Shown here piece by piece: positions 1,367 to 44,919 of a stretch of 64,000 bases of DNA. Location of the stretch: contig CAYQRM010000190.1 of the NCBI GenBank assembly GCA_964419785.1, forward strand, positions 31,290 through 95,289, given 5' to 3'. Source of the stretch: an uncultured Solibacteraceae bacterium. GTDB lineage: Bacteria; Acidobacteriota; Vicinamibacteria; Vicinamibacterales; SCN-69-37. Under the pieces are notes generated by a model. The model saw nothing but the letters and a program-made list of their open reading frames with translations. It made no database searches and was not told where the DNA came from. Numbering within the stretch: the first letter of the stretch is position 1; each line of letters starts with the position of its first letter. The position numbers and the translations under genes are program-made.

Positions 1367-4300
1367 TGCCCGGATTTTCGATCCGCAAGCCGTTCTTGAT
1401 CCTGGTGGTGTGCCTGATGGTCGGGGTGATGGGCATCACCGCGGTGGTGCGGATGCCCGTCGATCTTTTTCCGGACATCGACATTCCGGTGGTGGTCGTG
1501 GCGACGTTCTTTTCGGGCATGCCACCGGAGCAGATCGAAGCTGACATCACGGGACGCTTCGAGCGGTTCTTCACGCTCGGCAGCAGCATCGAGCACATCG
1601 AGTCCCGATCGCTGCCTGGCGTCAGCCTGATCAAGATCTATTTCCAGCCGGGCACCAACGCCGATTCGGCCGTGACCAACATCTCGAATCTGGCGATGGC
1701 GAACCTGCGTCGCTTGCCGCCCGGCACGCTGCCGCCGGTCGTGCTGAAGTTCGACGCCTCGTCGCTGCCAGTGTGCCTGGTGGCGCTCAAAGGCGAAGGG
1801 CTGAACGAGACGCAGCTGCGCGATCTGGCGCAGTACGCCGTCCGCAACCAGGTCGCCAACGTGAGCGGCGCGTCGGTGCCGCAGCCGTTTGGCGGCAAGT
1901 ACCGGCAGATCATGCTTTACGTCAACCCGATTGAGCTCGAGGCGCACCAGTTGAGCCCGATGGACATCGTGCGGGCGGTGAACGACTCGAACCTCATCCT
2001 GCCGGCCGGCGATGTGAAGATTGGTCCGTTCGACTACAGCATTTACACGAACAGCCAGATCGACGACATTTCCGGCATCAACGAAATTCCGCTGAAGACG
2101 TCGGGTCTCAACTCGGTTCGGCTGGCCGACGTCGGCACGGCCAAGGACGCCCAGCAGATCCAGACGAGCATCGTGCGCGTGGACGGCCAGCGGTCAGTGT
2201 ACCTGCCGGTGCTCAAGCAGGGCGGCAACACCAACACCATTGCGGTCGTGTCGGGCGTCAAGGCCGCCGTGTTGCGGCTGCTCGACGTCCCCCCTCAGCT
2301 CGTCACGCGCGTGGTCTTCGACCAGTCGCAGTTCGTGCTGGGTGCCATCCAGACCCTGCTCATCGCGATAGCCGTGGGACTGGGGCTGACGTCGGTGATC
2401 GTGCTGCTGTTTCTCGCGAGCGGCCGTGCGACGATCGCCGTGCTGCTTTCCGTGCCGATCTCCGGTCTGGCGGCCGTCCTTGCACTTTCGATAGGCGGCG
2501 CCTCGATCAACACGATGGTGCTGGGCGGCCTGGCGCTGGCATTCACACGGTTCCTGTTCAATTCGCTCGTCGTCCTCGAGAACATCTTCCGGCATCTCGC
2601 CGCTGGCGAGGCTCCGGCCGTGGCGGCCGAACGAGGTGGCCGCGAGATGGCAATGCCGGTGCTGGCGGCGACGCTCACGACGCTGGTCGTCTTCTTTCCG
2701 GTCACGTTTCTCTTCGGCGTGAGCCGATTCCTGTTTGCGGCCCTGGCCATCGCCGTGGTCCTTGCGCTCGTGGCGTCCTACTTTGCGGCGCTCACGGTCA
2801 TTCCGCTCGTTTGCGCGCGATTCGTGACGGCCCAGGCTGCCGCCGAAGGCGGCGGGCTCGCCGCGGTGCGCGCCCGCACGGACGCGCTCTTCGCCCGTCT
2901 CTCCCACGCCTACGCGCGCGCCGTTGCGCGCGCGCTCGATCGCCCCCGCGTTGTTCTCCTCGGACTGGCCGCGGTCGTGTGCCTGACGCTGCCCCTCTAC
3001 ACGCAGCTGCGGGTCGCCTTCTTTCCGCGCACGGACGCCGGCCAGTTCATGATCAACATCAAGGCGCAGTCCGGCACGCGGCTCGAGGTCACCGAGTCGC
3101 TCGTCGGCCGCGTCGAGGACATCGTGCGACAGGTGGTTGCGCCCGAGGATCTCGACGTCATCCTGTCGAACATCGGCGTCACGCCTGGCTTCTCGTCGAT
3201 GTACACGAGCAACTCCGCGCAGCACACGGCGTTCGTGCAGGTCAACCTCCGCGAGGGACACCGGGTTGGCAGCTACGAGTACATGGCGCGTCTGCGCCAG
3301 CGGCTCGCCTCCGACATGCCGCAGCTCACGACGTACTTTCAATCGGGCGGGATGGCCGACGCCGTGCTGAACCTCGGCCTGCCGGCGCCGATCGACGTGC
3401 AGGTCACCGGCACCGATCTCGACGCGGCCTACCGGACGGCTCTCGATATCGCCAGCCGTGCGCGCCAGCTCTCTGGCGTGAGCGATGTGTACGTCCCGCA
3501 GGATCTCGATTACCCGGCGCTCAAAGTCGAGATCGATCGCACGAGCGCAGGCCGCCTGGGCTTGTCGCAAAAGGAGATCGTCCAGAACGTCATCACGGCG
3601 CTGACCTCGAATCAGATGATCGCGCCGAGCTACTGGGTCGATCCGCGCAGCGGCAACGACTATCTGCTGACCGTGCAGTATCCCGAAGATCAAGTTCGCA
3701 CGCTCGACGACCTGTCGGCGATCCCGCTTCGCGCCCCGAACCGGCAGATGGCGACGCGGCTCGACGCGGTGAGCCGTATCACGAGAATCCAGTCGCCGAC
3801 CGAGGTCGATCATTACGCGCTCCGGCGGCTGATCGACGTTTACGTCGCGCCGGTGGGCGAGGACCTCGGGCGCGTCGCCTCAGCCATCGACCAGATCATC
3901 AACACCACGAAGCTGCCGAACGGCGTCCGCGTCGACTTGCGAGGCATGGTGCAGGGCATGCGGCAGTCGTTCACCAGCTTCGGGTTCGGCCTCGTCCTCG
4001 CGGTCGCACTGCTGTACCTCATTCTCGTCGCCCAGTTTCGATCGTTCTCCGATCCGCTGCTCATCCTCGCCGCGCTGCCGATGGGCGTGTCCGGCGTGCT
4101 CCTCACGTTGTTCGTGACCGGCACGAGCCTCAACGTCATGTCCCTGATGGGCACCGTGATGATGGTGGGCGTCGTGGTGTCGAACAGCATCCTGCTCGTG
4201 CACGAGGCCAACACGGCGCGCGACCGCAAGCTGCCGCTTCGAGAGGCGATCCTGGGTGCCTGCAGCGCGCGGTTCCGCGTCATCGTCATGACCTCCCTTG

Positions 4301-4495: not shown

Positions 4496-7400
4496 ATGTC
4501 GCGGTTCGCGATCCGGAACCCCCACATCATCGTGGTCGTGTGCCTCGTGCTGGGGATCGTCGGGTTGAGCAGCACCGTGCGGATGCCGGTCGATCTGTTT
4601 CCCAACATCAACATTCCCGTCGTGGTCGTGGCGACCTTCTTCTCCGGCATGCCGCCGGAGCAGATCGAGGCCGACATCACGGGGCGCTTCGAACGGTTCT
4701 TCACGCTGGCGGCCAACATCGAGCACATCGAATCGCGATCGCTGCCCGGCGTGAGCCTCATCAAGATCTATTTCCAGCCCGACACGGATCCGGATTCGGC
4801 CGTCACGAACGTCTCGAACCTCGCGATGGCGAACCTGCGGCGGCTACCGCCCGGCACGCTGCCGCCGGTTGTCCTGAAGTTCGACGCGTCGTCGCTTCCC
4901 GTCTGCCTGATTACGCTCAAGGGTGAGGGCTTGTCGGAGACGGAGCTTCGCGACCTGGGACAGTACGCGGTCCGCAACCAGGTCGCGAACGTCGAAGGGG
5001 CGTCGGTGCCCCAGCCGTTCGGCGGCCGCTACCGCCAGATCATGGTGTACGTCGATCCGGTGAAGCTCGCGGCGCATCAGCTGAGCCCAATGGACGTCGT
5101 GCGCGAGGTCAACGCGTCCAACCTCATTCTGCCGGCCGGCGACACGCGCATCGGGCCGTTCGACTACAGCCTGTACACCAACAGCCAGGTGAACACGGTC
5201 GATGACATCGACCGGATTCCGCTGAAGACGACGGACGGGGGCATCGTATCGGTGGCCGATGTCGGGTTCGCGCGTGACGCCGAGCAGATTCAGACGAACA
5301 TCGTGCGAGTGGACGGCCAGCCGTCGGTCTACCTGCCCGTGCTCAAACAGGGCGGCAATACGAACACCATCGCGGTCGTGGACGGCGTGAAGGCCGCCGT
5401 GTCACACCTGTTCAACGTGCCCGCGGGTCTGAGCCGGGCGGTGGTATTCGACCAGTCGCTCTTCGTGAAGAACGCGATCGAGACCCTGTGGCACGAAGGC
5501 GCGATCGGCCTGCTGTTGACGTCGCTCATGATCCTGATCTTCCTGGGGAGCGTCCGGGCGACCGTCGCTGTGTGTCTGTCGATTCCCCTGTCGGCGCTCG
5601 CGACGTTCCTCGTGCTGGCGCTGGGCGGCAGCTCGATCAACGCGATGGTGCTCGGCGGGCTGGCGCTCGTCTTCTCCCGGCTCATCGACAACTCGGTCGT
5701 CGTGCTCGAGAACATCTACCGGCACATGGAGAACGGCGTGCCCGCGGCCCAGGCCGCGGAGCGCGGGGGGCAGGAGGTGGCGCTGCCCGTGCTCGCCGCG
5801 ACGCTCACGACCGCGGTGGTCTTTTTCCCGGTCACCTTTCTCTACGGGGTCAGCCGGTTCCTCTTCTCCGCCCTGGCGCTGGCGGTCGTGATCGCGCTCG
5901 GCGCGTCCTACATCGTGGCCATGACGGTGGTCCCGCTCTTCTGCGCGCGGTTCCTCAAAGCGCCGGTGCACCTTGGCGCCGACGACGAGCCTCGCGGGTG
6001 GGGCGCGAGGTTCAACGCCTGGTTCAACCGCAACTTCGAGTCGATGCTCGAGCTGTACACGCGCGTGGTCGGACGCGCGCTTCGGCGGCCCGTGCTCGTC
6101 ATCGTGTCGTCGGCGGCCATTGTCGCGGCAAGCCTGTTTCTCTATCCGCAGCTCGGCGTGGCGTTCTTCCCGCGCACCGACGCCGGGCAGTTCGTCATGA
6201 ATCTCAAGGCGGCGCCAGGCACGCGGCTCGAGATCATGTCGGCGGAGACCGCGCGGGTCGAGCAGCTCGTGCGTGAGGTCGTCGCTCCTGACGACCTCGG
6301 GATGATCGTCTCGAACATCGGTGTCGCGCCTGGGTTCTCGTCGATCTACACGACCAATTCCGCCCAGCACACCGCGTTCGTCCAGGTCAGCCTGAGGGAA
6401 GGACACAAGATCGGCAGCTACGAGTACATGAACCGGATGCGCGCTCGGATGGCCCGGGAGCTGCCGGAACTGAGCGCGTACTTCCAGTCGGGCGGCCTCG
6501 TCGACGCGGTGCTCAACCTCGGGCTGCCGGCGCCAATCGACGTGCAGGTCAGCGGATCCGATCTGCGCGTGGACCACGAGGTGGCTGCCGACCTGGCCAC
6601 GCGCATTCGCGGCATCCCGAATGTCAGCGATGTCTTCGTGCCGCAGGACATCGACTACCCGGCGCTCGCCCTGGACGTCGACCGCGTGCGCGCGAGCCAG
6701 CTCGGGCTCAGCCAGCGGGAAGTCGTGAGCAACGTCATCACGGCGCTCACCTCGAACCAGATGATCGCGCCGAGCTACTGGGTCGATCAGCGCACCGGCA
6801 ACGATTACATGCTGACGGTGCAGTTCCCGGAGAATCGTGTGGCCAGCACGCTCGATCTCACGGGCATCCCGCTGCGCGCGCCTTCAGCGGTCGATCCGGT
6901 CCGGCTGGATGCCGTGACGTCGCTGCGCCAGTTTTCGGCCCCGACCGAAGTCAACCACTATGGCTTGCGGCGCGTCGTCGATATCTACGTCGGGCTGGCA
7001 AATGAGGACCTCGGCCGCGCTGCGAAGCAGATCGACCAGATCGTGGCGTCGATCCGCCTGCCCGACGGCGTGCGCACCGACCTCCGCGGAATGGTGCAGG
7101 GCATGCGGGCCTCGTTCGAGAGCTTCACGTACGGCCTGCTGCTCGCGCTCGTGCTGCTCTATCTCATCCTGGTCGCGCAATTCGAGTCGTTCGTCGATCC
7201 GCTCATCATCCTGCTCGCGGTGCCGCTCGGCGTGACCGGCGTGCTCGGCATGCTGTTTCTCGCCGGCACGACGGTCAACGTGCAGTCGCTCATGGGCGTC
7301 GTGATGATGGTCGGCATCGTCGTCTCGAACAGCATCCTCATCGTCGAGTTCACGCACCGCCTGCGCGATCAGGGCATGCCGACCCGCGAGGCGGTCGCCA

Positions 7401-7627
7401 TGGCGTGCCGCGTCCGGTTGCGGCCGGTGCTCATGACGTCGCTCGCCACAATCATCGGGCTGCTGCCGATGGCCCTGAAGCTCGGCACCGGCAGCGAAAG
7501 CTACGCCCCGCTCGCGCAGGCGATCATTGGCGGCCTGTCGGTGTCGGTTGTGTTCACGGTCGTACTCGTGCCGGCGGCGTGCCTGGTGGTGTACGAGCCT
7601 CGCCAGCCCAAAGTGGAACCGCGATGA
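4496..7627 (+). CDS. efflux RND transporter permease subunit, paralog 2
   Basis: Track ORF 4298..7627, but its first 66 codons overlap paralog 1. ATG 4496 lies 1 nt after the TAG at 4492-4494 and gives MSRFAIRNPHIIVVVCLVLGIVG, which is colinear with the paralog-1 N-terminus. It is similar to paralog 1 over its full length. Confidence 0.92.
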   Translation: MSRFAIRNPHIIVVVCLVLGIVGLSSTVRMPVDLFPNINIPVVVVATFFSGMPPEQIEADITGRFERFFTLAANIEHIESRSLPGVSLIKIYFQPDTDPDSAVTNVSNLAMANLRRLPPGTLPPVVLKFDASSLPVCLITLKGEGLSETELRDLGQYAVRNQVANVEGASVPQPFGGRYRQIMVYVDPVKLAAHQLSPMDVVREVNASNLILPAGDTRIGPFDYSLYTNSQVNTVDDIDRIPLKTTDGGIVSVADVGFARDAEQIQTNIVRVDGQPSVYLPVLKQGGNTNTIAVVDGVKAAVSHLFNVPAGLSRAVVFDQSLFVKNAIETLWHEGAIGLLLTSLMILIFLGSVRATVAVCLSIPLSALATFLVLALGGSSINAMVLGGLALVFSRLIDNSVVVLENIYRHMENGVPAAQAAERGGQEVALPVLAATLTTAVVFFPVTFLYGVSRFLFSALALAVVIALGASYIVAMTVVPLFCARFLKAPVHLGADDEPRGWGARFNAWFNRNFESMLELYTRVVGRALRRPVLVIVSSAAIVAASLFLYPQLGVAFFPRTDAGQFVMNLKAAPGTRLEIMSAETARVEQLVREVVAPDDLGMIVSNIGVAPGFSSIYTTNSAQHTAFVQVSLREGHKIGSYEYMNRMRARMARELPELSAYFQSGGLVDAVLNLGLPAPIDVQVSGSDLRVDHEVAADLATRIRGIPNVSDVFVPQDIDYPALALDVDRVRASQLGLSQREVVSNVITALTSNQMIAPSYWVDQRTGNDYMLTVQFPENRVASTLDLTGIPLRAPSAVDPVRLDAVTSLRQFSAPTEVNHYGLRRVVDIYVGLANEDLGRAAKQIDQIVASIRLPDGVRTDLRGMVQGMRASFESFTYGLLLALVLLYLILVAQFESFVDPLIILLAVPLGVTGVLGMLFLAGTTVNVQSLMGVVMMVGIVVSNSILIVEFTHRLRDQGMPTREAVAMACRVRLRPVLMTSLATIIGLLPMALKLGTGSESYAPLAQAIIGGLSVSVVFTVVLVPAACLVVYEPRQPKVEPR

Positions 7628-8916
7628 CCCAGCTCCCGATCAGGATCGCCTTCGTTCTGTTCATTGTGTGCATGGCTGCGCCGGCCCGCGCACAGAGCGC
7701 TCAGGCGCTGTCGCTCCAGCAGGCTCAGCAGCTGGCGCTCGCGAACCATCCCCAGATTCAGCAGGCCGAATTCACCTCACAGGCAGACGACGAGGCCGTG
7801 CGCGCGGCGCGGTCGGCGTACTACCCGACAGCGTTTGCCAGCCTGACAGGCGCCGACGCGAGCGCCGGAAGCCGCATCGCGGCCGGCGGGCTCAACAACC
7901 CCATCATCCTCGAGCGCTTCGCCGGAGGCGTGGGCGTCAGCCAGTTGGTCACGGATTTCGGGCGGACCGGCGCGCTCGTCGACAGCATGTCGCTGCGCGC
8001 GGACACCGGCCGGCGCGATGTCGATGCGCGGCGCGCGGACGTCCTGCTTCAGGTCGACCGCTCGTACTTCATGGCGCTCCGCGCCCAGGCCGTCGAGAGA
8101 GTCGCCGAAGAGACCACGACGACGCGACAGCTGGTGGTCGATCAGGTGACAGCGCAGACGGCGAGCGGCCTGAAGTCGGATCTGGACTTGAGTCTGGCGA
8201 AGGTCAATCTCTCCGAGGCACAGATGCTGTTGCTGCAGGCGAAGAGCGATGTGGACACCGCGTTCGCGGCGCTCACGGCTGCGCTCGGGCGAGCGGACGC
8301 CGCCAGCTACACGCTGGCCGACGAGCCCTTGCCGTCCGCGCCGCCGCCCGATCCGGAGGCGCTCGTGACCGAAGCCCTGCGCGATCGGCCGGACGTGGCC
8401 GCCGTGCAGCTTTCGGCGGAGGCGGCGCGCAGATTCGCGGACGCCGAAGGCGCGCTCCGGCTGCCGGCAGTGTCGATGGTCGCGGCGGTCGGCACGGTGC
8501 CGTACCACGTGGCGGGCCTGACCGACAAATATTCGGCGGCCGGCATCAATCTGACCGTGCCGATCACGACCGGCGGTTTGATCGGGGCGCGGCACGCGGC
8601 CGCGACGCTCGCCGCCCAGAGCGAGACGCAGCGGCTGCGCGATCTGCAGGATCGGGTGGCTCGCGACGTCCGCACCGCCTGGCACGATGCGGAAACCGCG
8701 TTTCAACAGATGGATGCCGCGACGCAGCTGCTCGCGGCCGCGAGCGACGCCGCCGACCTCGCGCAAACCCGCTTCGACATCGGGCTGGGGTCAATCGTCG
8801 AGCTCACGCAAGCGCAGTTGAGCAAGACGCGCGCCCAAATCGCCGTCGCGACGGCGCGCTACGATTATCAGCTCCGGACCGCGGTCCTGAAGTATCAAAC
8901 CGGACAGCTAAAATAG
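7624..8916 (+). CDS. TolC-family outer membrane efflux protein
   Basis: Track ORF 7405..8916. ATG 7624 overlaps the RND-2 stop (ATGA) and gives the signal peptide MTQLPIRIAFVLFIVCMAAPARAQS. It has two TolC-like repeat halves with L/A/Q-rich coiled-coil segments (LDLSLAKVNLSEAQ, ARYDYQLRTAVLKY). Confidence 0.88.
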   Translation: MTQLPIRIAFVLFIVCMAAPARAQSAQALSLQQAQQLALANHPQIQQAEFTSQADDEAVRAARSAYYPTAFASLTGADASAGSRIAAGGLNNPIILERFAGGVGVSQLVTDFGRTGALVDSMSLRADTGRRDVDARRADVLLQVDRSYFMALRAQAVERVAEETTTTRQLVVDQVTAQTASGLKSDLDLSLAKVNLSEAQMLLLQAKSDVDTAFAALTAALGRADAASYTLADEPLPSAPPPDPEALVTEALRDRPDVAAVQLSAEAARRFADAEGALRLPAVSMVAAVGTVPYHVAGLTDKYSAAGINLTVPITTGGLIGARHAAATLAAQSETQRLRDLQDRVARDVRTAWHDAETAFQQMDAATQLLAAASDAADLAQTRFDIGLGSIVELTQAQLSKTRAQIAVATARYDYQLRTAVLKYQTGQLK

Positions 8917-10500: not shown

Positions 10501-13131
<2,631 letters not shown>

Positions 13132-13234
13132 GTGAGCCGGCGGCGATTATACGCGCCGCGTCAGATGCCGCGCGGCCATGCCCGTCCGGAGTATCTTCCG
13201 CGCCGCGCGTACGCCAGAATGCGCACGGGCCGGG

Positions 13235-14077
13235 ATGGAACCGAGTCGCACGAGCTTCGCCTTGCTGGGGGTCGCGATCGCCGTCGCGGGCGTCGCACCG
13301 GTGCTGCGCATCGCCGCCGTGCCTCAGTATCAGCTCGTCTGGGCGGACGAGTTCGACAAGGACGGCGCGCCGGATCCTGCCAATTGGACGTTCGAGCACG
13401 GCTTCGTGCGCAACCAGGAGCTGCAGTGGTATCAGCCGCAGAACGCGCACGTCGAGCGCGGATTGCTCGTGATCGAAGCGCGGCGCGAGCATGTGGAGAA
13501 TCCGTCGTTCGATGCGACGTCGCCGGATTGGAAGCGCAACCGGCCGGCGGCGGAGTACACGTCGGCGAGCCTGACGACGCGCGGATTGCACAGCTTTACG
13601 TATGGGCGCTTCGAGGTGCGCGCGCGCATCGATACGCGACCGGGCATGTGGCCCGCGTTCTGGACCGTCGGCGCGAGCGGCCCGTGGCCGCACAACGGCG
13701 AGATCGACATCATGGAGTTCTACCGCGCGACGCTGCTCGCCAACGTTGCGTGGGGCGCCGCCGAGCGCAATCACGCGATCTGGGCCGACACGCGCACGCC
13801 GCTCTCGACATTTGGCGCCGGCTGGTCGCAGCAGTTCCATGTCTGGCGCATGGACTGGGACGAGCGCGCGATCAAGCTGTCCGTGGATGATCGGCTGCTG
13901 AACGACGTCGACCTGGCGCGCACGATCAATCAGGACGGCACCGGCAACCCGTTCACGCGGCCCCAGATCATCATCCTGAATCTTGCCGTCGGCGCGACCG
14001 GCGGCGATCCGTCGACGACCACGTTTCCCGGCAAGTACGAGATCGACTACGTGAGGGTCTATCAGGCGGCCCGCTAA
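13235..14077 (+). CDS. glycoside hydrolase family 16 (beta-glucanase/laminarinase-like), secreted
   Basis: Track ORF 13178..14077. ATG 13235 gives MEPSRTSFALLGVAIAVAGVAPV (signal peptide). The GH16 catalytic motif ExDxxE is present as NGEIDIMEF, within a jelly-roll context (WPAFWTVG, WRMDW). Confidence 0.88.
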   Translation: MEPSRTSFALLGVAIAVAGVAPVLRIAAVPQYQLVWADEFDKDGAPDPANWTFEHGFVRNQELQWYQPQNAHVERGLLVIEARREHVENPSFDATSPDWKRNRPAAEYTSASLTTRGLHSFTYGRFEVRARIDTRPGMWPAFWTVGASGPWPHNGEIDIMEFYRATLLANVAWGAAERNHAIWADTRTPLSTFGAGWSQQFHVWRMDWDERAIKLSVDDRLLNDVDLARTINQDGTGNPFTRPQIIILNLAVGATGGDPSTTTFPGKYEIDYVRVYQAAR

Positions 14078-14092
14078 ACGCGCCAAGAAACG

Positions 14093-14133
14093 GATCACGC
14101 TAGAAGTGTGAAGCCAGAAGTTAGAAGTAGAAG
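14093..14133. repeat. left arm of inverted repeat built of GAAG heptads (GATCACG-cta-GAAG-tgt-GAAG-cca-GAAG-tta-GAAG...)
   Basis: GAAG recurs at 14103, 14110, 14117, 14124 and 14130. The reverse complement of 14514-14550 matches this arm at 30 of 36 ungapped positions by my manual alignment. Confidence 0.7.
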
Positions 14134-14166
14134 AGACGAGCTCGTCCTGGCGAGATCGGAATCGGA

Positions 14167-14508
14167 TTACGTGTGCGTGTGTGGGCGCCGATGGCAGTGG
14201 CCGCCAGATCGAAACATCACGATCGTCGCCCACCACAGAAGGATCGCTCCGGCTGCCGCCCAGAACCACATCACTCGCGGCAAGGTCGCGTCCGAGGCTG
14301 CCGCAATCGCGCCGGCGCTTGCCACGAGCGCCGAGATCGCCAATGGAACGGCGGCGAGCCGCCGTACTCTCGGGCTCATCCGCGACTTCCGGAGGAATGG
14401 CGAGACGTTTCCGCCCAGGTAGTGGCCTGGATCGTAGCGATGCTCGGTCCATTCGACGTAGTCGCCGATCGGATCGTCAGGCTTGTGCTTCGACATGAAG
14501 TCACTCAA
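14167..14508 (-). CDS. hypothetical small membrane protein (113 aa) with His-rich C-terminus
   Basis: Third-position GC is high when read codon by codon. It has two hydrophobic helices (LAAVPLAISALVASAGAIAAA, VMWFWAAAGAILLWWATIVMF) and the tail GGHCHRRPHTHT. I recognise no family. Confidence 0.55.
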   Translation of the reverse strand: MSDFMSKHKPDDPIGDYVEWTEHRYDPGHYLGGNVSPFLRKSRMSPRVRRLAAVPLAISALVASAGAIAAASDATLPRVMWFWAAAGAILLWWATIVMFRSGGHCHRRPHTHT

Positions 14509-14513
14509 CGCCG

Positions 14514-14550
14514 AACTTCTAGCTTCTGGCTTCTAACTTCCAACTTGATC
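14514..14550. repeat. right arm of the GAAG-heptad inverted repeat
   Basis: The reverse complement reads GATCAAG-ttg-GAAG-tta-GAAG-cca-GAAG-cta-GAAG-tt and pairs with 14093-14133. It overlaps the last roughly 10 codons (RSSWKLEARS) of the gene 14519..15085. Confidence 0.7.
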
Positions 14551-32688: not shown

Positions 32689-35475
32689 ATGCGCTGTCCG
32701 TCCTGCCGCGCCAGCCTTCCCGACTCGAGCCGCTTTTGTCCCTCGTGCGGCGTGTCGCTCGACGTGTCGTCCGGCGAGACCCGGCTGGCTGATGACCGGA
32801 CGCGGATGGCGGACGATCGGACGCGCCTGGCTGACGACCAGACGCGTCCCGCGCCGGCGACCAGCGGCGCGCGGTCGGGTTCGACGACGAGTGGATGGCT
32901 GAGCTCGTCGGGATCGATCGATCACGGACGATTCGCGCCGGGCGCCGTGCTCGACAACCGCTATCGCATCATCGGATTGCTGGGCCGCGGCGGGATGGGC
33001 GAAGTGTATCGCGCCGACGACCTGCGGCTGGGCCAGCCCGTTGCACTGAAGTTCCTGCCGGCGGATCTTTCGAGCAACGCGCGCCGCCTCGCGCAGTTTC
33101 ACAACGAAGTGCGGATCGCCCGCCAGGTGTCGCATCCGAACGTCTGTCGGGTGTATGACATCGGCGAGGTTGACGGCGCGCTGTACTTGTCGATGGAGTA
33201 CGTCGACGGCGAAGATCTGGCGGCGTCGCTCAAGCGCGTCGGCAGGTTTCCGGAGGATCGCGCGATCGAGCTCGCGCGGCAGATCGCCGCGGGCCTCGCG
33301 GCCGCGCACGAACGCGGCGTGATTCATCGTGACCTCAAGCCCGCGAACGTCATGCTCGACTCGTCGGGCCGAGTCCGCCTGATGGATTTTGGCCTCGCGG
33401 CAATCGGCGATGTCGGTGACATCCGCGTCGGCACGCCCGCCTACATGGCGCCCGAGCAGCTCGAGGGGCGCGAGGTCACGCTCAAGAGCGACATCTACGC
33501 GCTGGGGCTGGTGCTGTACGAGTTGTTCACCGGGCGCCGTGCCTTCACGGCCGGGACGCTCGCCGATCTCATCCAGGAACAGCAATCGGGCAGCATCACG
33601 GCGCCGACCGAGATCGTCAAGAACCTCGATCCGGCGATCGAGCGCGCGATCATGCGCTGTCTCGATCGCGACCCGGCGAAGCGGCCTGCATCGGCGCTCG
33701 CGGTGTCGGCGGCGCTGCCGGGCGGCGATCCGCTGGCTGCCGCGCTTGCCGCCGGCGAGACGCCGTCGCCGGAAATGGTCGCGGCCGCGGGCGGCGAGGA
33801 GATCGTGCTCTCGCGCACGATCGGTTCTACGTATCTCGCGCTGACGGTCGCGCTGTTGATCGTTGCGCTGCAGATGTCTGGCGCGTCGATGCTGTCGCGC
33901 GTGTCGCTCGAGAAGCCGCCCGAAGTGCTGGCCGATCGCGCCGAGCAGATCCGCGAGTCACTTGGCTACACGGCTCCCGTCGTCGATCGCGCCATCGGCT
34001 ACGAATACAGCGGCGGCTATCTGAACTGGGCCAAGCGCCAGGGCGCGGGCGCCAGCCGATGGACCGTGCTTTCAGGCGCGCGTCCGGCGCCGTTGTATTT
34101 CTGGCGCCGGACGAGCCCGCGCGTGCTCATCCCGGTGGATCAGACCGGCAGCCCCGGGCGCGGCGACCCGCCGATGGACGTCACGGCGATGACGCTCGTC
34201 GACATCGACACGATGGGCCGCCTCCTGCGATTCTCCGCGGTGCCGCCGCAAGTCGAGCGGCCCGACGATCCGCCCGCGCCGGCGTTGGACTGGAGCGTTG
34301 CCTTCTCGGCTGCCGGGCTCGATCAACAGACGTTTCACGAGGTCGCGCCCCAGAGAACACCGGACACGTTCGCCGACGATCGACGCGCGTGGGAGGGCGC
34401 GTTCCCCGGCACGGACACGAAGGTGCGGCTCGAGGGCGCGTCGTACCGCGGCAGGATTGTCTGGTTCGCGCTGATCGGACCGTGGTCCGTGCCGACGCGC
34501 GATACGCCATTCGACGTCGCCGACAACAGCACGCCGCCGGCGCAGGTCTTCGTGATTCTCGCATTGCTGCTCCTGGCCGCGTGGCTCGCGCACCGCAACG
34601 TCCAGTCAGGCCGGGCGGATCGGCGCGGCAGTTTCCGGCTCGCGGCCTTTACGTTTTTTCTGTTCATGACGCAGTGGGCGGTGGCCCCGCACGTGTCGAA
34701 CATCCCGGCGGAGTGGACGAGATTTCTTCTGAGCGGCTTGGCGATCGCGCTGCTGCTCGCCGCGATTCTCTACATCGTGTACCTGGCGCTCGAGCCATTC
34801 ATCCGGCGGAGCTGGCCGACCGTGCTCGTTGGCTGGACGCGGCTGGTGTCCGGGCGTTTCCGCGATCCGATCGTGGGCCGCGATCTGCTGGCCGGTGTGA
34901 TGTTCGGCGTCGCGTTCGGCGTGTTCGATCTGGTCCTTCAAGTGATGCCCGTCTGGTTCGGGCGGCCCGAGCCGATTCCCCACCAGCCGCAGATCAACAC
35001 GTTGCTCGGCTTGCACGAGCTCACGATCAGCCTGCTCGGCTGCCTGAACAACGGCTTGCAAAACGGCCTCATTTTCACGCTGCAGTTCGCGCTCGTGCGT
35101 GATTTTCTGCTGAGACTCGCGCGACGCCTGGGGCCGAACGCCGCGGCGGACGTCTCGACGGCCATCGCCATCGTCCTCGTGACGCTCATCAACATGCTCA
35201 CGAGCCGAAGCGACTGGTGGCTCGTGACCACGATGTCGACGATCGAGACAGCCCTGACGCTCCTCGTGCTGCTGCGGATTGGCCTGTTGGCCACGACGGT
35301 GATGTTCGTCATCACCGCCCTGATTCAGCGGATGCCGCTCACGCTCGACGGCACGAAGTTCTATGCGAACGAAGGCTGGTTGGCCGTGGCGATCGTGTTC
35401 GGTCTGGGCGCGCTCGGCTTCTGGACGGCTCGTCAACAGGCGCAGGCGCCCGGGCGTATAGCCGTAAGAGCGTAG
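32689..35475 (+). CDS. serine/threonine protein kinase with N-terminal zinc ribbon and polytopic C-terminal membrane domain (paralog of 10501..13131)
   Basis: 928 aa. It has the zinc ribbon MRCPSCRASLPDSSRFCPSCG and the kinase motifs GRGGMGEVY, VALKFL, HRDLKPANVM, DFGLA and GTPAYMAPE. It shares the juxtamembrane LPGGDPLAAALAAGETPSPEMVA and the C-terminal motifs YLALEPFIRRSWP and WTRLVSGRFRDPIVGR with the paralog. Confidence 0.9.
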   Translation: MRCPSCRASLPDSSRFCPSCGVSLDVSSGETRLADDRTRMADDRTRLADDQTRPAPATSGARSGSTTSGWLSSSGSIDHGRFAPGAVLDNRYRIIGLLGRGGMGEVYRADDLRLGQPVALKFLPADLSSNARRLAQFHNEVRIARQVSHPNVCRVYDIGEVDGALYLSMEYVDGEDLAASLKRVGRFPEDRAIELARQIAAGLAAAHERGVIHRDLKPANVMLDSSGRVRLMDFGLAAIGDVGDIRVGTPAYMAPEQLEGREVTLKSDIYALGLVLYELFTGRRAFTAGTLADLIQEQQSGSITAPTEIVKNLDPAIERAIMRCLDRDPAKRPASALAVSAALPGGDPLAAALAAGETPSPEMVAAAGGEEIVLSRTIGSTYLALTVALLIVALQMSGASMLSRVSLEKPPEVLADRAEQIRESLGYTAPVVDRAIGYEYSGGYLNWAKRQGAGASRWTVLSGARPAPLYFWRRTSPRVLIPVDQTGSPGRGDPPMDVTAMTLVDIDTMGRLLRFSAVPPQVERPDDPPAPALDWSVAFSAAGLDQQTFHEVAPQRTPDTFADDRRAWEGAFPGTDTKVRLEGASYRGRIVWFALIGPWSVPTRDTPFDVADNSTPPAQVFVILALLLLAAWLAHRNVQSGRADRRGSFRLAAFTFFLFMTQWAVAPHVSNIPAEWTRFLLSGLAIALLLAAILYIVYLALEPFIRRSWPTVLVGWTRLVSGRFRDPIVGRDLLAGVMFGVAFGVFDLVLQVMPVWFGRPEPIPHQPQINTLLGLHELTISLLGCLNNGLQNGLIFTLQFALVRDFLLRLARRLGPNAAADVSTAIAIVLVTLINMLTSRSDWWLVTTMSTIETALTLLVLLRIGLLATTVMFVITALIQRMPLTLDGTKFYANEGWLAVAIVFGLGALGFWTARQQAQAPGRIAVRA
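32776..32847 (+). repeat. in-frame 21-nt tandem repeat (about 3.4 copies) encoding (T/E)RLADD(R/Q) heptapeptides
   Basis: The units are GAGACCCGGCTGGCTGATGAC, CGGACGCGGATGGCGGACGAT, CGGACGCGCCTGGCTGACGAC and CAGACGCGTCCC. They translate to ETRLADD RTRMADD RTRLADD QTRP and lie between the zinc ribbon and the kinase domain. Confidence 0.85.
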
Positions 35476-40067: not shown

Positions 40068-40649
40068 ATGAAACGCCGGACGGTGCTCCAGTCAATTGCC
40101 GCGTTCGTGGCGGTGCGGCCGTTCACGCGGTTGCGGCTGTTCGCCCAGAACTCAATAAGCGACGCGGACGTCGCCACGCTCAAGGCGATCGCCGAGGTCA
40201 CGCTGCCGGCCTCGGCGGGTGCCGCTGGTCGCGACCAGGCCGTCGAGCACTTCGTCGGCTGGGTGCGTAATTACAAGGAAGGAGCGGACCGCGGGCACGG
40301 CTACGGCAACTCGCAGCTCTCGCCGCCCACCGGACCGTCGCCGGCGGCGCGTTATCCCGCGCAGTTCGCCGCGCTCGACAAGGCGGCGGCCGATCAGGGC
40401 GCCGCGTCGTTTGCCAAGCTGCCCGTTGCGGCGCGGCGCGCGATCGTCGAGTCCGCGCTCAACACGCCACAGCCGGTGACGCGGCTGCCGGCGCGGCCTA
40501 CCGGCGCCAATCTCATTGCCGACTTCATGGGCTTGTACTTCAACAGCGCCGAGGCCGTTGATCTCTGCTATCGCGCGGCGATCGAGCGCGACACTTGCCG
40601 CGGTCTCGAAAATTCCGAGCAGGCGCCGCGGTCGCTCGGAGGGCAGTAG
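40068..40649 (+). CDS. gluconate 2-dehydrogenase subunit 3-like small subunit with Tat signal
   Basis: The N-terminus MKRRTVLQSIAAFVAV is twin-arginine-like. It is 193 aa and lies immediately upstream (2-nt gap) of a GMC flavoprotein, as in membrane-associated FAD dehydrogenase complexes. Confidence 0.7.
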   Translation: MKRRTVLQSIAAFVAVRPFTRLRLFAQNSISDADVATLKAIAEVTLPASAGAAGRDQAVEHFVGWVRNYKEGADRGHGYGNSQLSPPTGPSPAARYPAQFAALDKAAADQGAASFAKLPVAARRAIVESALNTPQPVTRLPARPTGANLIADFMGLYFNSAEAVDLCYRAAIERDTCRGLENSEQAPRSLGGQ

Positions 40650-40651
40650 CC

Positions 40652-42232
40652 ATGGCGCGCTACGAAGCAGACGTCGTGGTGATCGGCGGTGGCGTGACCG
40701 GCGCGATGATGGCGCAGAAGCTGTCCGAGCTTCGACCCAACTGGTCGATCATCGTCGTCGAAGCGGGCAAGCGGCTGTTCGATTTCGAGAGTCGCTTCGA
40801 GTACCGCCAGCGCAATTTGGATTACGGCGAGAACCAGTGGCCGGGAGACTTCGTCGCCGATCAAACGGCGCGCGGCGTGATTTCGCGCGCGATGGCGGTC
40901 GGCGGATCCGCGCTGCACTGGGGCGGCGTCTGCAATCGATTTTCTGAAGAAGATACGCGGCTCAAATCGATGTACGGCCTCGCCGTCGATTGGCCGATCG
41001 AGTGGAAAGAGCTCGAGACGTTCTACTGCGAAGCCGAACGGCGGCTGGGGGTGTCGGGCGAGCCGAGTCCGCTCGCCGAAGATTGGCGGTCGGAGCCGTA
41101 TCCGATGCCGGCGATGCCGATGACGTTCAACATGGTCCAGCTCAAGGGCTGGGCCGAGAAGAGCGGCATCAAGTTCTGGACGACGCCGCAGGCGAAGAAC
41201 ACGGTCGACGGGTACGGCGGACGCGGCAAGTGCCGTCGCTGCAATACGTGCGAAGTGTGTCCAACCGGCGCGCGCTACTCGCCGGACTGGACGTTCAAGC
41301 AGCTGCTCGACGCGAAGAAGATTCAGCTGCACGACCAGACGCTCGTGCGCAAGCTCACGCTCGACGGCTCGACGACGAAGATCGCGTCGGCGCAGGCCGC
41401 GAAGGAAGACGGATCGGACAACAATGTCGAGTACCGCGCGCGCACATTCGTGATTGCGTCCGGCTACTGCTGGAGCTCGCACCTTCTGCTGGTCTCGGCG
41501 AACTCGCGCTTCCCGAATGGTCTCGCCAACACGTCGGATCACGTCGGGCGATACTTGACCGGGCATCTCGCGTATCAGACGCAGATCGATCTCAACGTGA
41601 AGATCTTCCCGGGCATGAACGAGCAACACAGCCTGATCTCGCGTCAATTCTTCCGCTGCCGCACGGATCAGCCGTACGTGCGCCACGACCTTCGCGTGTG
41701 GGAGAGCGCGAGCGGCCGGGCGCCCCAGCTTCGCGACGGATCGGGCAAGCTGCTGCTCGGCGACGATCTGCTCGCCGACTGGCGGTCGCGGACGACGCGC
41801 GGATCGGCGCGTGTGCGCGGGTACTACACGGTCGAGCCCGACAAGGACAGCCGGCTGACGCTCGACGCCTCGACGAAGAATCGCTGGGGCGATCCGCTGC
41901 CCGTGCTGCAGCACAAGATCGACGCTGCCACGGCCGCGCGCGCCGGCGCGACGCGCGATCACTTCCAGACTCTTTTTGCCCAGCTCGCGAAAGCGAACGA
42001 CGGCAAGATGGGCAATCTGTCGGGCCTCAACTATCAGGACCATCCGGCCGGCGGCTGCCGCATGGGCACCGACCCGTCGACCAGCGTCGTCGACAGCCAC
42101 GGCCGCACGCACGATCACGACAATCTCTTCGTCGTCGGCTCGCCGACGCTCCCGACCGGCGGCTGCACCAACGGCACGCTGACCTTCGTCGCGATGACGC
42201 TGCGATCAGCGACCGCGATCGCTGCGAATTAG
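40652..42232 (+). CDS. GMC-family FAD-dependent oxidoreductase
   Basis: Track ORF 40595..42232; the start is ATG 40652. It has the FAD fingerprint DVVVIGGGVTGAMMAQKL and a C-terminal GMC region (HPAGGCRMGTDPSTSVVDSHGRTHDHDNLFVVGSPTLPT). Confidence 0.88.
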   Translation: MARYEADVVVIGGGVTGAMMAQKLSELRPNWSIIVVEAGKRLFDFESRFEYRQRNLDYGENQWPGDFVADQTARGVISRAMAVGGSALHWGGVCNRFSEEDTRLKSMYGLAVDWPIEWKELETFYCEAERRLGVSGEPSPLAEDWRSEPYPMPAMPMTFNMVQLKGWAEKSGIKFWTTPQAKNTVDGYGGRGKCRRCNTCEVCPTGARYSPDWTFKQLLDAKKIQLHDQTLVRKLTLDGSTTKIASAQAAKEDGSDNNVEYRARTFVIASGYCWSSHLLLVSANSRFPNGLANTSDHVGRYLTGHLAYQTQIDLNVKIFPGMNEQHSLISRQFFRCRTDQPYVRHDLRVWESASGRAPQLRDGSGKLLLGDDLLADWRSRTTRGSARVRGYYTVEPDKDSRLTLDASTKNRWGDPLPVLQHKIDAATAARAGATRDHFQTLFAQLAKANDGKMGNLSGLNYQDHPAGGCRMGTDPSTSVVDSHGRTHDHDNLFVVGSPTLPTGGCTNGTLTFVAMTLRSATAIAAN

Positions 42233-42536
42233 ATCACGAAGAGCCTCAACCACGAAGAGCACGAAGGACACGAAGCCGGAAAGAGCGAGGATCGATTCAC
42301 CACGTTAGGGCACACATAGGCTGGTCGTGGCGCCGTCGATCTGACGGCCGCCTTCGGCGGCCCTGGCGAGGATCGACGGCGCGAATCAAATCGCGAGACG
42401 CATGTGGCCGTTTCTTCGGGCTGCTGACGCGGCCAGCCTGCGTGCCCTACGTGGTGTGATGGCCCTCGGAGCGAAGCTGCGGTGCTGTCCGACCTTCGTG
42501 ACCCTTCGTGAGCTTCGTGGTGAATCGCTCTTGATC
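42232..42536. mobile_element. 305-bp foldback / MITE-like non-coding element with imperfect terminal inverted repeats (GATCA...TGATC) of CACGAAG nonamers, flanked by TA on both sides
   Basis: The left end is GATCACGAAGAGCCTCAACCACGAAGAGCACGAAGGACACGAAG. The reverse complement of the right end is GATCAAGAGCGATTCACCACGAAGCTCACGAAGGGTCACGAAG. Further inward there are perfect pairings at 42294-42304/42516-42526 (11 bp) and 42330-42341/42371-42382 (12 bp), plus a central hairpin GGCCGCC-TTC-GGCGGCC at 42346-42362. TA occurs at 42230-42231 and 42537-42538. No ORF looks convincing. Confidence 0.55.
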
Positions 42537-44155
42537 TAGCCCTCGAACTCGAGCGACCGCGCCTGCAGCTCGACGCGCGCTCGAGTGAGGAGCTCCATCA
42601 CGATGCTCGCCGTGATCACGACGCCGAACGCGATCGCCGTGGCCGTCGGGCTCTGGTAAAGCGTCGCGGAAAAGCCCTGCAGCAGCGCGCTGATCACGAA
42701 CATCACGACCATCAGCATGATGATCGAGTTTGCGCGGCGATTGACCTGCATCGGACGCGAGAACGGCAGCTCGGGATCGAGCAGCACGTTGGCCTGAAGC
42801 ACGAGGTGGCTGATGAGGCCGAGCAGCGCGACGTGGACGACGACGTGCCAGACGTTGTGCGACAAATACAGGAAGATCGCGCCGATGAAGAGCAGATACG
42901 GAAGCAAGAAGAACGCGACGAGCACGTTCTTTGCCGACCGGATGATGCGCAGCCGATCGGCCGGACACGCGAAGAATATCCACGATGCGCGAAACGCGTC
43001 GCTGCGCGTGAGCGCCGGCTTCAGCATCGACGGAAACATCAGCACCGCGACGGTCACGAACGACAGGCCTCTGCCCGCCGACGCGACGAACGGATCGTGC
43101 AGGTTGCCGTCGCGCACGCCCATGACCACATAGATCAGCGTCAGCGGCAGGATGCTGAGGATGCCCATCCGAAAGCGCTGGTCGTTGCGGAACTGGCTGC
43201 GGACGAGCACGGCCACGGCGCGTGCCTCGCCCGCGCGAAACCACCAGCCGCCACGCGATCGCCCCGCTTTTGCCGGCCGTGCCGGTTTGCTCGACGCCGC
43301 GATCGCCGCCAGCCGATCCGAGTAGCTGAGCGACAACCGGCCGCCCAGGCCCGCGACGAGCCCGACGAGCAATCCGACCGACAGCAGGATGGCGACGAAC
43401 TCGATTGGCACCAACCGTCCGGTTGCCGCGTCGAGATACGCCGCGAACCACATCGGCGGCACGAACAGCATCCACCACGCCTTCGGCAGCGACACCGACG
43501 TCAGCGCCAGCGAGCGCGACAACTGCGACATCAGAAAGTACCCGCCGTAGATCAGAAAGCTCATCGCGAGCTGGACGTATGACAGCGCGCGCTTCAGCGC
43601 GTCGGCGCCGACGATGTTCATCAGCCAGCCATAGCCGAAGAGGATCGAGAAGGCCGTGAAGAACGAGCAGCCATAGAGCGCCGCAATCCCGGCGACGCCG
43701 ACCAGCGCGCCGTGCCGGATGAACAGCGACACCGCGGGCAAGTACGCGGTCAGCGTCGTGATACCCGTCGTGTAGACGAGCGCGTTGGCGAGCCGCGACG
43801 CGAAATACGTGCGCGACGAGACAGGACGAAATCCGAGGATCGCGTAGTCCTTCGGCGACGTCAGCGCTGAATTGTGATCGAGCAGTACCGTGGTCCCCAC
43901 CATGAACGTGACGTACGTGGTGAGCACGGTCCCGGCGAGAAACAAATCGCGCGTCGCCCAGATGACGATCGCCATGAACAGGCCGTAGACCGAGTAGAAG
44001 ATGGCCTGGCTGACGAGCACGGCCGTGCTGCGCGCGCCGGCGCCGAAGCGCGATCGCCCGAATGACCCGCCGCGGAAGTCGAGCTTGAGTGCGACCAGCG
44101 TGAGCGCCTTCCACTGGTCGTAGTCGACGCCCAAGGCTGCCGCGATTCGCCTCAT
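42536..44155 (-). CDS. polytopic membrane protein, putative ABC exporter permease partner
   Basis: 539 aa with at least 12 hydrophobic helices. Its start overlaps the stop of the upstream ABC ATPase by 4 nt. It resembles the 'putative ABC exporter' type of permease, but the family call is tentative. Confidence 0.6.
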   Translation of the reverse strand: MRRIAAALGVDYDQWKALTLVALKLDFRGGSFGRSRFGAGARSTAVLVSQAIFYSVYGLFMAIVIWATRDLFLAGTVLTTYVTFMVGTTVLLDHNSALTSPKDYAILGFRPVSSRTYFASRLANALVYTTGITTLTAYLPAVSLFIRHGALVGVAGIAALYGCSFFTAFSILFGYGWLMNIVGADALKRALSYVQLAMSFLIYGGYFLMSQLSRSLALTSVSLPKAWWMLFVPPMWFAAYLDAATGRLVPIEFVAILLSVGLLVGLVAGLGGRLSLSYSDRLAAIAASSKPARPAKAGRSRGGWWFRAGEARAVAVLVRSQFRNDQRFRMGILSILPLTLIYVVMGVRDGNLHDPFVASAGRGLSFVTVAVLMFPSMLKPALTRSDAFRASWIFFACPADRLRIIRSAKNVLVAFFLLPYLLFIGAIFLYLSHNVWHVVVHVALLGLISHLVLQANVLLDPELPFSRPMQVNRRANSIIMLMVVMFVISALLQGFSATLYQSPTATAIAFGVVITASIVMELLTRARVELQARSLEFEG

Positions 44156-44919
44156 ACCCTGTCGAGTGCCGAGAGGAATTCGCTCGCGACCTGTCCGACG
44201 TCACGGACGCCCGTAAGATGACTAAAGGCCTCTTCGAGCGTCGCCGTGCCGGTCGACGCGCGGATCTCCACGGCCGTGCCGTCCGCGACCTGCCGGCCGT
44301 CATTGATCACGACGATGCGCGTGCAGATGCGTTCGACGACCTCGAGGATGTGCGAGCAAAACAGGATCGTCCGCCCCTGACCGGCGAGCTTCTTGAGCAG
44401 CTCCTTCATGACCGCCGCGGCGTTAGCGTCGAGGCCATCGAGCGGCTCGTCGAGAAACAGCACTTCGGGGCGATGCAACAGCGCCGAAGCAATGAGCACC
44501 TTCTGACGCATGCCCTTAGAGAATTCCGTCATGCGTTGATCGACCACCGCGCCGAGCCCGAAGAGATCGAGCAGCTCCGTTCGGCGTGTGGCCGACGTTT
44601 TCGGATCGAGGTGATGCAGGCACCCGACGAGCTCGAGATACTCCGACGCCGTCAGGCCGTCGTAGAGCGCCGCGGTTTCCGGCACGTAGCCGATGCGCTT
44701 CTTCACTTCGAGCGGATCGGTCGCGATGTCGAAGCCCGCGACGACCGCCCGACCGCTCGTCGGACGAATCATCCCCGTGAGGATCTTCACGGTGGTCGAC
44801 TTGCCGGCGCCGTTCGGACCGAGAAAACCGAGAATCTCGCCGGGTGCGACCGACAGCGACAAGTCGACGAGCGCGCGTTTCTCGCCGTAGCTCTTCGAGA
44901 GATGCTCCGTCTGAATCAT
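44152..44919 (-). CDS. ABC transporter ATP-binding protein
   Basis: It has Walker A GPNGAGKST, a signature-like FSKGMRQK, Walker B VLFLDEPLDGLD, and the H-loop CSHILE. Confidence 0.92.
   Translation of the reverse strand: MIQTEHLSKSYGEKRALVDLSLSVAPGEILGFLGPNGAGKSTTVKILTGMIRPTSGRAVVAGFDIATDPLEVKKRIGYVPETAALYDGLTASEYLELVGCLHHLDPKTSATRRTELLDLFGLGAVVDQRMTEFSKGMRQKVLIASALLHRPEVLFLDEPLDGLDANAAAVMKELLKKLAGQGRTILFCSHILEVVERICTRIVVINDGRQVADGTAVEIRASTGTATLEEAFSHLTGVRDVGQVASEFLSALDRV

Follow-up and report, generated by a model that had tools for sequence, protein, structure and literature searches.

Small extragenic repeats influence how transcripts end and how genomes rearrange, and they matter for strain typing; to our knowledge they have been characterized almost only in Proteobacteria, Neisseria, and cyanobacteria. 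They include bacterial miniature inverted-repeat transposable elements (MITEs) such as Correia/NEMIS of Neisseria and ERIC/IRU of enterobacteria, which are inserted at TA; transcripts of Correia and ERIC elements form long hairpins, which RNases target. Proteobacteria carry repetitive extragenic palindromes and mosaic clusters of them, known as REP, REPIN, and BIME sequences (PMC3733652, PMC3116915, PMC2817692), and direct repeats of the heptamer TAACTGA occupy intergenic regions of Beggiatoaceae, Cyanobacteria, and Bacteroidetes (PMC4679880). The element considered here is a 305-bp palindrome at positions 42232-42536 of a 64,000-nt stretch (the window) of contig CAYQRM010000190.1, from an uncultured Solibacteraceae bacterium placed in the Vicinamibacterales (Acidobacteriota). 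It fills the entire gap between two convergent genes, encoding a GMC-family oxidoreductase and a 539-aa membrane protein (hereafter the permease gene), and its arms contain arrays of the heptamer CACGAAG.

Comparison with related loci establishes the element as a mosaic palindromic repeat of a dispersed family, lineage-specifically acquired or retained exactly between two stop codons. With only a little more than even confidence, we lean toward the fuller reading that a mosaic extragenic palindromic repeat of the REP, BIME, or MITE kind, belonging to a dispersed family and acting as a 3′-end hairpin, fills the gap. Small extragenic palindromic or foldback repeats are known as a kind, yet the heptamer-array arms, the orientation rules, and the spread over several phyla and phages appear undescribed; a search of the accessible literature did not find tandem CACGAAG strings reported as a bacterial repeat, and its two matches were unrelated mammalian cell-biology papers. 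The family is thereby placed in a poorly studied soil order, the Vicinamibacterales, and the same array, lead-in, and orientation rules recur in other phyla and in phage genomes.

Like REP, REPIN, and BIME sequences, members of this family are extragenic imperfect palindromes, mostly 3′ of genes and between convergent or co-directional neighbors, whose units stand singly or in inverted pairs of fixed relative orientation (here 34 ′><′ against 0 ′<>′); modules are combined in mosaics, no target duplication is needed, and stabilization or termination at mRNA 3′ ends is the proposed function. Unlike REP sequences, which are single hairpins of 20-40 bp, the arms here are heptamer arrays with spacers of 0-3 nt. 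The unpaired GTAG/CGTC end tag of REP sequences (PMC3733652) is missing as well; TTNAC precedes the arrays, and the only GTAG is that within the degenerate CACGTAG units of an inner-arm block, module A. No RAYT transposase is linked to the CACGAAG arrays in the fetched loci, and the family occurs in Acidobacteriota, Chloroflexota, Planctomycetota, and phage genomes.

With Correia and ERIC elements the family shares an intergenic foldback of the 100-300 bp class and presence/absence polymorphism among strains, and the window copy also has TA at its ends. However, there is no sequence similarity, the arms are heptamer arrays, the outer arms are of two sub-types, and TA flanks are not a feature of the family. 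MITEs of the IS630 or Tc1/mariner type are likewise small foldbacks with inverted termini, and TA adjoins both ends in the window copy only; they differ in that TA duplication is not confirmed in other copies here and that the terminal repeats are composite arrays. Like TAACTGA repeats, the arrays consist of a fixed heptamer in 2-6 or more copies, intergenic and oriented with respect to genes, patchily distributed across phyla, and no means of transfer is evident. The TAACTGA repeats stand immediately 5′ of start codons and hardly ever occur in inverted orientation (PMC4679880). CACGAAG arrays, in contrast, follow stop codons, consist mostly of three units separated by 2 nt, and often face a convergent partner with which they make a hairpin; in the window element, no gene starts downstream of either array. 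The STRR heptamer repeats of cyanobacteria are a further analog.

Architecture of the 305-bp palindrome

The initial annotation described the whole gap between the two genes as one long imperfect palindrome, and the coordinates, termini, stems, and tip it gave were all confirmed. The foldback is real and far beyond chance: RNA of the plus strand has a minimum free energy of -176.7 kcal/mol compared with -125.3 ± 4.7 kcal/mol for dinucleotide shuffles (z = -10.9, 0/100), and the minus strand gives z = -8.7 against its shuffles. The termini read GATCA (42232-42236) and TGATC (42532-42536). Four CACGAAG units lie on the left (42235-42241, 42251-42257, 42260-42266, and 42269-42275) and three CTTCGTG units on the right (42494-42500, 42504-42510, and 42513-42519), with inner arm sequences ATTCACCACGTTAGGGCACACATAGGCTGG and CCAGCCTGCGTGCCCTACGTGGTGTGAT. 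One stem joins 42290-42304 to 42516-42530 (15 nt, 93% paired), and another, perfect over 12 bp, joins 42330-42341 to 42371-42382.

The two outer arms represent distinct sub-types. The left outer arm, L1 (42232-42277, plus strand), reads GATCACGAAG-N8-CCACGAAG-AG-CACGAAG-GA-CACGAAG and belongs to the 'GATCACGAAG N8 CCACGAAG' sub-type found in Acidobacteriota. Its array is sense-oriented directly 3′ of the GMC stop codon, TAG at 42230-42232, and the GMC side read outward is TAG-ATCACGAAG-AGCCTCAAC-CACGAAG-AG-CACGAAG-GA-CACGAAG. The right outer arm, R1 (42490-42536), reads GATC-AAGAGCGATTCAC-CACGAAG-CT-CACGAAG-GGT-CACGAAG-G on the minus strand and is of the sub-type with an AAGAGCG lead-in and three units. 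This array is sense-oriented directly 3′ of the permease stop codon (the complement of 42536-42538), so that the permease side read outward is TAG-ATC-AAGAGCGATTCAC-CACGAAG-CT-CACGAAG-GGT-CACGAAG.

Nested inside the outer arrays is a unit with the order A-B-tip-B′-(unique insert)-A′. The inner left arm L2, or module A (42281-42324, plus strand), was delimited by alignment with related copies and by motif search; it comprises the lead-in AAGAGCGA(GGATCG)ATTCAC and two degenerate units CACGTTAG-GG-CACACATAG-G, followed by CTGG. Module B, GCGCCGTCGATCTGAC (42330-42345, plus strand), supplies the 5′ half of the perfect 12-bp stem, and module B′, GATCGACGGCGC (42371-42382, plus strand), its 3′ half; between them stands the apical hairpin GGCCGCC-TTC-GGCGGCC (42346-42362), seen in both sequence and fold. 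An asymmetric interior segment of about 48 nt (42383-42432) is unpaired with the other side and has no match elsewhere. The inner right arm R2, module A′ (42433-42460), reads ATCACACCACGTAGGGCACGCAGGCTGG on the minus strand and was placed by stems, motif, and alignment. Because the outer arrays belong to two sub-types and enclose an inner A-B...B′-A′ unit whose module A is itself a lead-in plus degenerate units, the 305 bp are a mosaic of family modules and not one element with a simple pair of terminal inverted repeats. The putative building block of the family is a short CACGAAG array (degenerate form CACGTAG) with a lead-in ending in TTNAC, preceded in this sub-family by AAGAGCGATTCAC.

The ends of the element, AGATCACGAAGAGC and AGATCAAGAGCG, resemble the start of the Illumina adapter (AGATCGGAAGAGC), and a sequencing or assembly artefact was considered. 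It was rejected because the element is the same in three assemblies and stands, with a 1-nt difference, in two independent Joint Genome Institute assemblies of the same strain, and because the adjacency of the GMC and permease genes is conserved in relatives; related arrays also occur in many independent assemblies, including one isolate genome.

Turnover at orthologous junctions and copies at unrelated loci

Eight orthologous junctions were compared, with identity taken over the last 750 nt of each flanking gene. The closest sampled relative (L061; 94.8% and 94.1% nucleotide identity to the window genes) has a 7-nt spacer, TAG-ATCGAGA-TCA; L003 and L004 (88-90%) have 5-nt spacers; and in L005 (85-88%) the two stop codons overlap as CTAG. 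The element is absent from all of these, which supplies the empty sites that the initial annotation had proposed to look for in relatives. Its reconstruction, in which removal of 42232-42536 plus one TA gives GCGAAT-TA-GCCCTC with both stops kept, also holds when read from the sequence, and an overlapping-stop ancestor of this kind exists in one relative, L005.

Other relatives carry something else at the junction. In L062 (about 85% nucleotide identity in the GMC gene), the 31-nt spacer at 4582-4612, GAGCATTCGCAGATCGACGGCGCATCCGAGA, begins with an AAGAGC-like lead-in fragment and contains the exact 14-mer CAGATCGACGGCGC, the complement of module B at 42330-42343, with B′ (GATCGACGGCGC) as its 12-nt core (0/2000 shuffles). 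This spacer probably represents what a deleted member of the family left behind, and the module B fragment in it suggests that the family formerly occupied the orthologous site. L006 (89% nucleotide identity in the permease gene) has a different CACGAAG-type array directly 3′ of the permease stop. In L060 (92% amino acid identity in GMC, nucleotide identity not being measurable), the junction at 4591-4659 holds a hairpin of four GTCCGGA units facing four TCGGAC units, and in L063 (about 83% nucleotide identity in the GMC gene), that at 4582-4649 holds a hairpin of GTTCCGN units, with five copies of GGTTCCGN facing CGAAC-type units. The C-terminal length of both proteins is constant except in L060, where GMC has 3 additional aa and its C-terminal tail differs.

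The element is thus a presence/absence polymorphism at a fast-turning-over junction. The pattern could be accounted for by a gain in the window lineage or by deletions among several relatives, and the gain, or the loss from the closest relatives, would fall within about 5% sequence divergence and alter no coding base. With four different hairpins or nothing in strains 83-95% identical, the junction is naturally suited to dating events of this type and working out their course.

A metagenome scan with a pattern satisfied by both inner arms gave two true relatives in unrelated contexts, L059 and L057, both from related bacteria that are Vicinamibacterales-like, and related copies, which the initial annotation had suggested searching for, do exist elsewhere. 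Both loci match the window copy in module A (GATTCACCACGTAGGGCACGTAGGCTGGCCGCG) and, exactly over its 16 nt, in module B (GCGCCGTCGATCTGAC). The L059 copy lies between the co-directional genes rplT and pheS (PheS by Pfam; L20 called in orthologous loci) and has the same A-B...B′-A′ architecture with other hairpins in the center, along with an R1-type lead-in and array. The L057 copy adjoins the start of an amino-acid permease gene and ends at the contig end, with only its left half (A, B) visible. Scan loci L055, L056, and L058 were discarded as chance coding matches, as were a viral match to module B (L187) and a match at L050.

Relatives of L059 (L065 and L066, PheS 89-92% identical) have short spacers without the element, L065 sharing the pheS leader of L059, and the rplT-pheS interval is thus a second independent case of presence and absence. 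At the same interval in L064 (1839-2000), a 162-nt spacer contains a hairpin of GTACGAC/GTCGTAC units, with an 11-nt direct repeat, ACCTGTCGTAC, on either side of the inserted part; ACCTGTCGTAC is present once within the 27 nt between the genes in L066 (145-171). The repeat in L064 could be a target duplication or the seed of local growth. The contig of L059 also bears a 6S RNA gene at 7555-7737 (Rfam RF00013, 87.8 bits).

These copies bear on the mechanism put forward in the initial annotation, namely that a MITE derived from Tc1/mariner or IS630 was inserted at a TA inside overlapping stop codons and duplicated it. An inserted, dispersed foldback, MITE-like in the broad sense, is supported; the TA-duplicating mechanism is not, and we consider it highly unlikely. 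TA does stand on both sides (42230-42231 and 42537-42538), clean excision restores both stops, close relatives lack the element, and the L005 site is CTAG, a preferred IS630 target. However, both TAs belong to TAG stop codons. The left one supplies the opening two bases of the GMC stop, and the right one, read on the complementary strand, does the same for the permease stop. This makes the flanks weak evidence, a pair being expected about one time in four: 12 of the 23 long window open reading frames (ORFs) with high third-position GC content end in TAG or TAA, and two TA-type stops are expected in about 27% of cases. Repeats of TAG (3 nt) and of GATC (4 nt) likewise occur at the two element ends, and a duplication of either, or none at all, fits equally well. 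Given the sequence of the nearest empty site (TAGATC-GA-GATCA, in L061), the terminal GATCs may belong to the flank or represent a footprint; with L061 as the empty reference, an inserted segment of 42236-42532 without duplication fits and is equally possible. The flanks of the L059 copy, the second full one (...ACACC|AAGAGCG...CCTCTG|TTGTC), lack both TA and an evident duplication, and TA flanks are likewise missing from about 20 other array hairpins. The outer arms, being of different sub-types, do not make a simple terminal inverted repeat pair, and no DDE transposase was found among the neighboring genes or, in the fetched loci, between widely spaced inverted arrays.

Very little credence is left for the two other suggestions of the initial annotation, a conserved structured noncoding RNA and a classical bidirectional intrinsic terminator. 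The very stable fold on both strands and the position between convergent genes speak for them, but the element is missing from its closest relatives, and its absence from L061 largely refutes both. Rfam 15 gave no gathering-score match in the window and none relevant even at E ≤ 1 in 42100-42700, where the single hit was a chance CRISPR-DR match at 42188-42213 in GMC coding sequence, outside the element; no matching family was found in 13 related loci either. In the alignment of the window and L059 arms the mismatches are uncompensated, and no compensatory changes supporting the fold were found. The stem is followed by GCCCTCG on the plus strand and TTCGCAG on the minus strand, and neither is a U-tract. 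A promoter scan returned no sigma-70 promoter.

CACGAAG arrays across phyla and phages, and their possible roles

A genome scan with the left outer arm as pattern (GATCACGAAG-N8-CCACGAAG) yielded ~20 intergenic array hairpins in Acidobacteriota (many of them Vicinamibacterales), Chloroflexota (Caldilineae, Anaerolineae, and Herpetosiphon), and one Planctomycetota genome, after about half of the loci had been discarded as chance coding matches. The L1 arm type is present in 13 Acidobacteriota loci. These copies share bases at positions that the search pattern left free, GCCACGAN before the match and ACNGTNTG within it, and the arms are therefore homologous. Two metagenome-assembled genomes have at least two array loci each (L019 and L035; L014 and L028). 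The number of units per array ranges from 3 to 14 across the genome-scan hairpins.

In IMG/VR, a scan for CACGAAGNNCACGAAGNNCACGAAG (CACGAAG x3) found at least 120 loci. Control heptamers of the same composition gave similar counts (GAAGCAC 96 loci, CAGCAAG at least 120), so the raw count is uninformative and was rejected as a sign of abundance. Arrangement separates them. Among the matches listed, at least two separate arrays occurred in 39 of 120 CACGAAG loci as opposed to 2 of 96 for GAAGCAC and 2 of 119 for CAGCAAG; two identical spacers were found in 25%, 93%, and 80% of the respective arrays; and inverted neighbors within 450 nt numbered 18, 0, and 0. The controls behave like simple coding tandem repeats, not like dispersed arrays. 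Asking whether arrays fall inside an open frame was uninformative in GC-rich DNA. Both viral matches to the lead-in AAGAGCGNTTCACCACGNAG (L403 and L404) were discarded as chance coding matches. No BLAST match was obtained in cultured phages and plasmids, where the low-complexity filter may hide arrays.

Array statistics cover all fetched loci (n = 280 arrays). The majority have exactly three units preceded by TTNAC. Adjacent arrays are arranged as ′><′ in 34 cases, as ′>>′ in 3, and as ′<>′ in 0 (p = 1e-10), and paired arrays occur in both convergent and co-directional gene contexts. For solo arrays (n = 159), a long sense-strand ORF ends 0-80 nt upstream in 71, versus 30 with an antisense ORF ending beyond the other side, and the median distance from stop codon to array is 15 nt. 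In predicted folds, 90% of bases are paired in units versus 63% in spacers.

Phage contigs carry 4-7 arrays per ~10 kb, co-oriented with the genes, and the two array contigs that were checked are genuine tailed-phage genomes. L108 encodes tape measure, major head, and adaptor proteins, with six co-oriented arrays after structural genes; L106 has a primase gene together with terS and terL, and the latter two have a 210-bp hairpin element between them. In L077 the arrays are preceded by AAGAGCGTTTCA, near-identical to the R1 lead-in. Some phage copies have perfect arms of 27-30 bp, spacers included, around interiors of 37-208 nt, and are MITE-like.

In the phage-like loci L077, L085, L104, L108, and L160, the array-bearing intergenic regions also contain further arrays on the coding strand, made of other 7-9-mers rich in purines (CAGAGGG, CACAGATG, GACGAATG, CGTTGGAA, ACGGAAG, CAGAAGG, and AACGGCA), often with short GC-rich hairpins between arrays. 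In the phage contigs L074, L082, L106, and L113, the outer arm side reads CATCAGTCAAAACC..TTCAC and the hairpin lies about 20 nt upstream of an opposite-strand start codon; copies in these four contigs adjoin gene starts as well as gene ends.

An alternative explanation dispenses with transposition and has the hairpins grow in place from short units by slippage, template switching, and palindrome-templated repair, events tolerated in these genomes only at gene 3′ ends. Different 7-8-nt units at the same junction in L060 (GTCCGGA) and L063 (GTTCCGN) are as such growth would produce, as is the GTACGAC-array hairpin of L064 with its 11-nt direct repeat, present once in the short L066 spacer; the variable number of units and the weaker pairing of spacers point the same way. 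Local growth is nonetheless insufficient, because modules A and B (an exact 16-mer and an arm of ~30 nt) and the lead-in are common to unrelated loci in other organisms and the identical heptamer with its TTNAC lead-in recurs across phyla and phages. We regard this origin as unlikely.

The arrays might instead be cis-acting DNA or RNA binding sites, placed after stop codons, for a conserved protein, the foldback being a by-product of two arrays that face each other across a convergent gene pair. More speculatively, they might load a termination factor onto antisense or read-through RNA, in which CUUCGUG would recur every 9 nt. Sense orientation at a short distance from stops, strict ′><′ pairing, co-orientation with genes along phage contigs, and outer arms of two sub-types each adjoining its own gene all agree with binding sites, and TAACTGA direct repeats, proposed to be regulator binding sites, offer an analog (PMC4679880). 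Yet the inner A-B-B′-A′ palindrome is left unexplained, and in L059 it is complete between co-directional genes; the nearest relative, L061, lacks both arrays; phage copies whose perfect arms include the spacers look copied as units; and no candidate protein is known. Taken together, this makes the binding-site reading rather doubtful.

Under the favored reading of a dispersed mosaic repeat acting as a 3′-end hairpin, a transcript reading out of either gene would, by fold prediction, form a hairpin of ~300 nt. By analogy, the hairpin would give both convergent operons a structured 3′ end, could impede both 3′ exonucleases and transcription running on into the opposite gene, and is possibly a substrate for a double-strand RNase. 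A comparable 3′-end hairpin role is proposed for Correia elements. The element itself would be copied by a trans-acting factor that recognizes heptamer arrays, and not by a TA-duplicating DDE transposase. For REP and BIME sequences, a role in 3′-end stabilization or termination has also been proposed (PMC3733652).

Several results weigh against this reading. The terminator scan found no terminator-like site in 42232-42536, with no U-tract after the stem on either strand. Since TA, TAG, GATC, or no duplication fit equally, the ends are not uniquely placed. BLAST within the 64-kb window detected no second copy of the element. The difference in sub-type between the outer arms means that the block may have been assembled from separately acquired pieces and not by one insertion, and the hairpins built from other units at the same site in L060 and L063 fit local generation. 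Finally, no transposase was found among the six neighboring genes or, in the fetched loci, between inverted arrays 0.4-3.5 kb apart; the ORFs that such arrays enclose encode a capsid protein or a Dam-type methylase, or have no Pfam match.

A broader and distinctly more tentative possibility is that CACGAAG x3 together with its TTNAC lead-in forms an undescribed intergenic element, spread horizontally among Acidobacteriota, Chloroflexota, Planctomycetota, and many tailed phages and served by a dedicated trans-acting partner, the window element being one mosaic product, and that this partner is a new mobilizing enzyme or a conserved DNA- or RNA-binding factor marking gene ends. The placement of arrays ~15 nt after stops, their sense orientation, and their convergent-only pairing suggest such a partner. 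If a cognate protein exists, it would represent a new mobilization route for miniature elements or a new gene-end signal.

Flanking genes and other features of the window

The GMC gene (40595-42232, plus strand; longest ORF) matches Pfam GMC_oxred_C (3.5e-17) and GMC_oxred_N, and its product ends ...SATAIAAN*; relatives are called at 526 aa, and homologs are named GMC oxidoreductase of Vicinamibacterales. The permease gene (42536-44155, minus strand), assigned from the ORF list, Pfam, and homolog names, is named an ABC-2-type transport permease by some sources only; it lies downstream of an ABC ATPase gene (44152-44919), and its product ends ...LEFEG*. Homologs of both proteins come from metagenome-assembled genomes of Vicinamibacterales (Acidobacteriota) and from soil metagenomes.

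A second pair of inverted heptamer arrays, with a different unit, lies in the window at 14095-14133 and 14512-14545, about 380 nt apart. The left array has (T)AGAAG(T) about 5 times and follows the stop of the gene at 13178-14077, the right one reads CTTCTAG/CTTCTGG/CTTCTAA, and the pair (14095-14545) flanks a minus-strand ORF (14167-14508) for a predicted small membrane protein. Elsewhere in the window, 1447-4199 and 4577-7344 are tandem paralogous stretches of ~2.8 kb, ~3.13 kb from start to start and 70-85% identical, which look like duplicated large genes. The segments 12103-12979 and 32925-33795 are inverted paralogs, 70-79% complementary over ~0.9 kb and ~20 kb apart.

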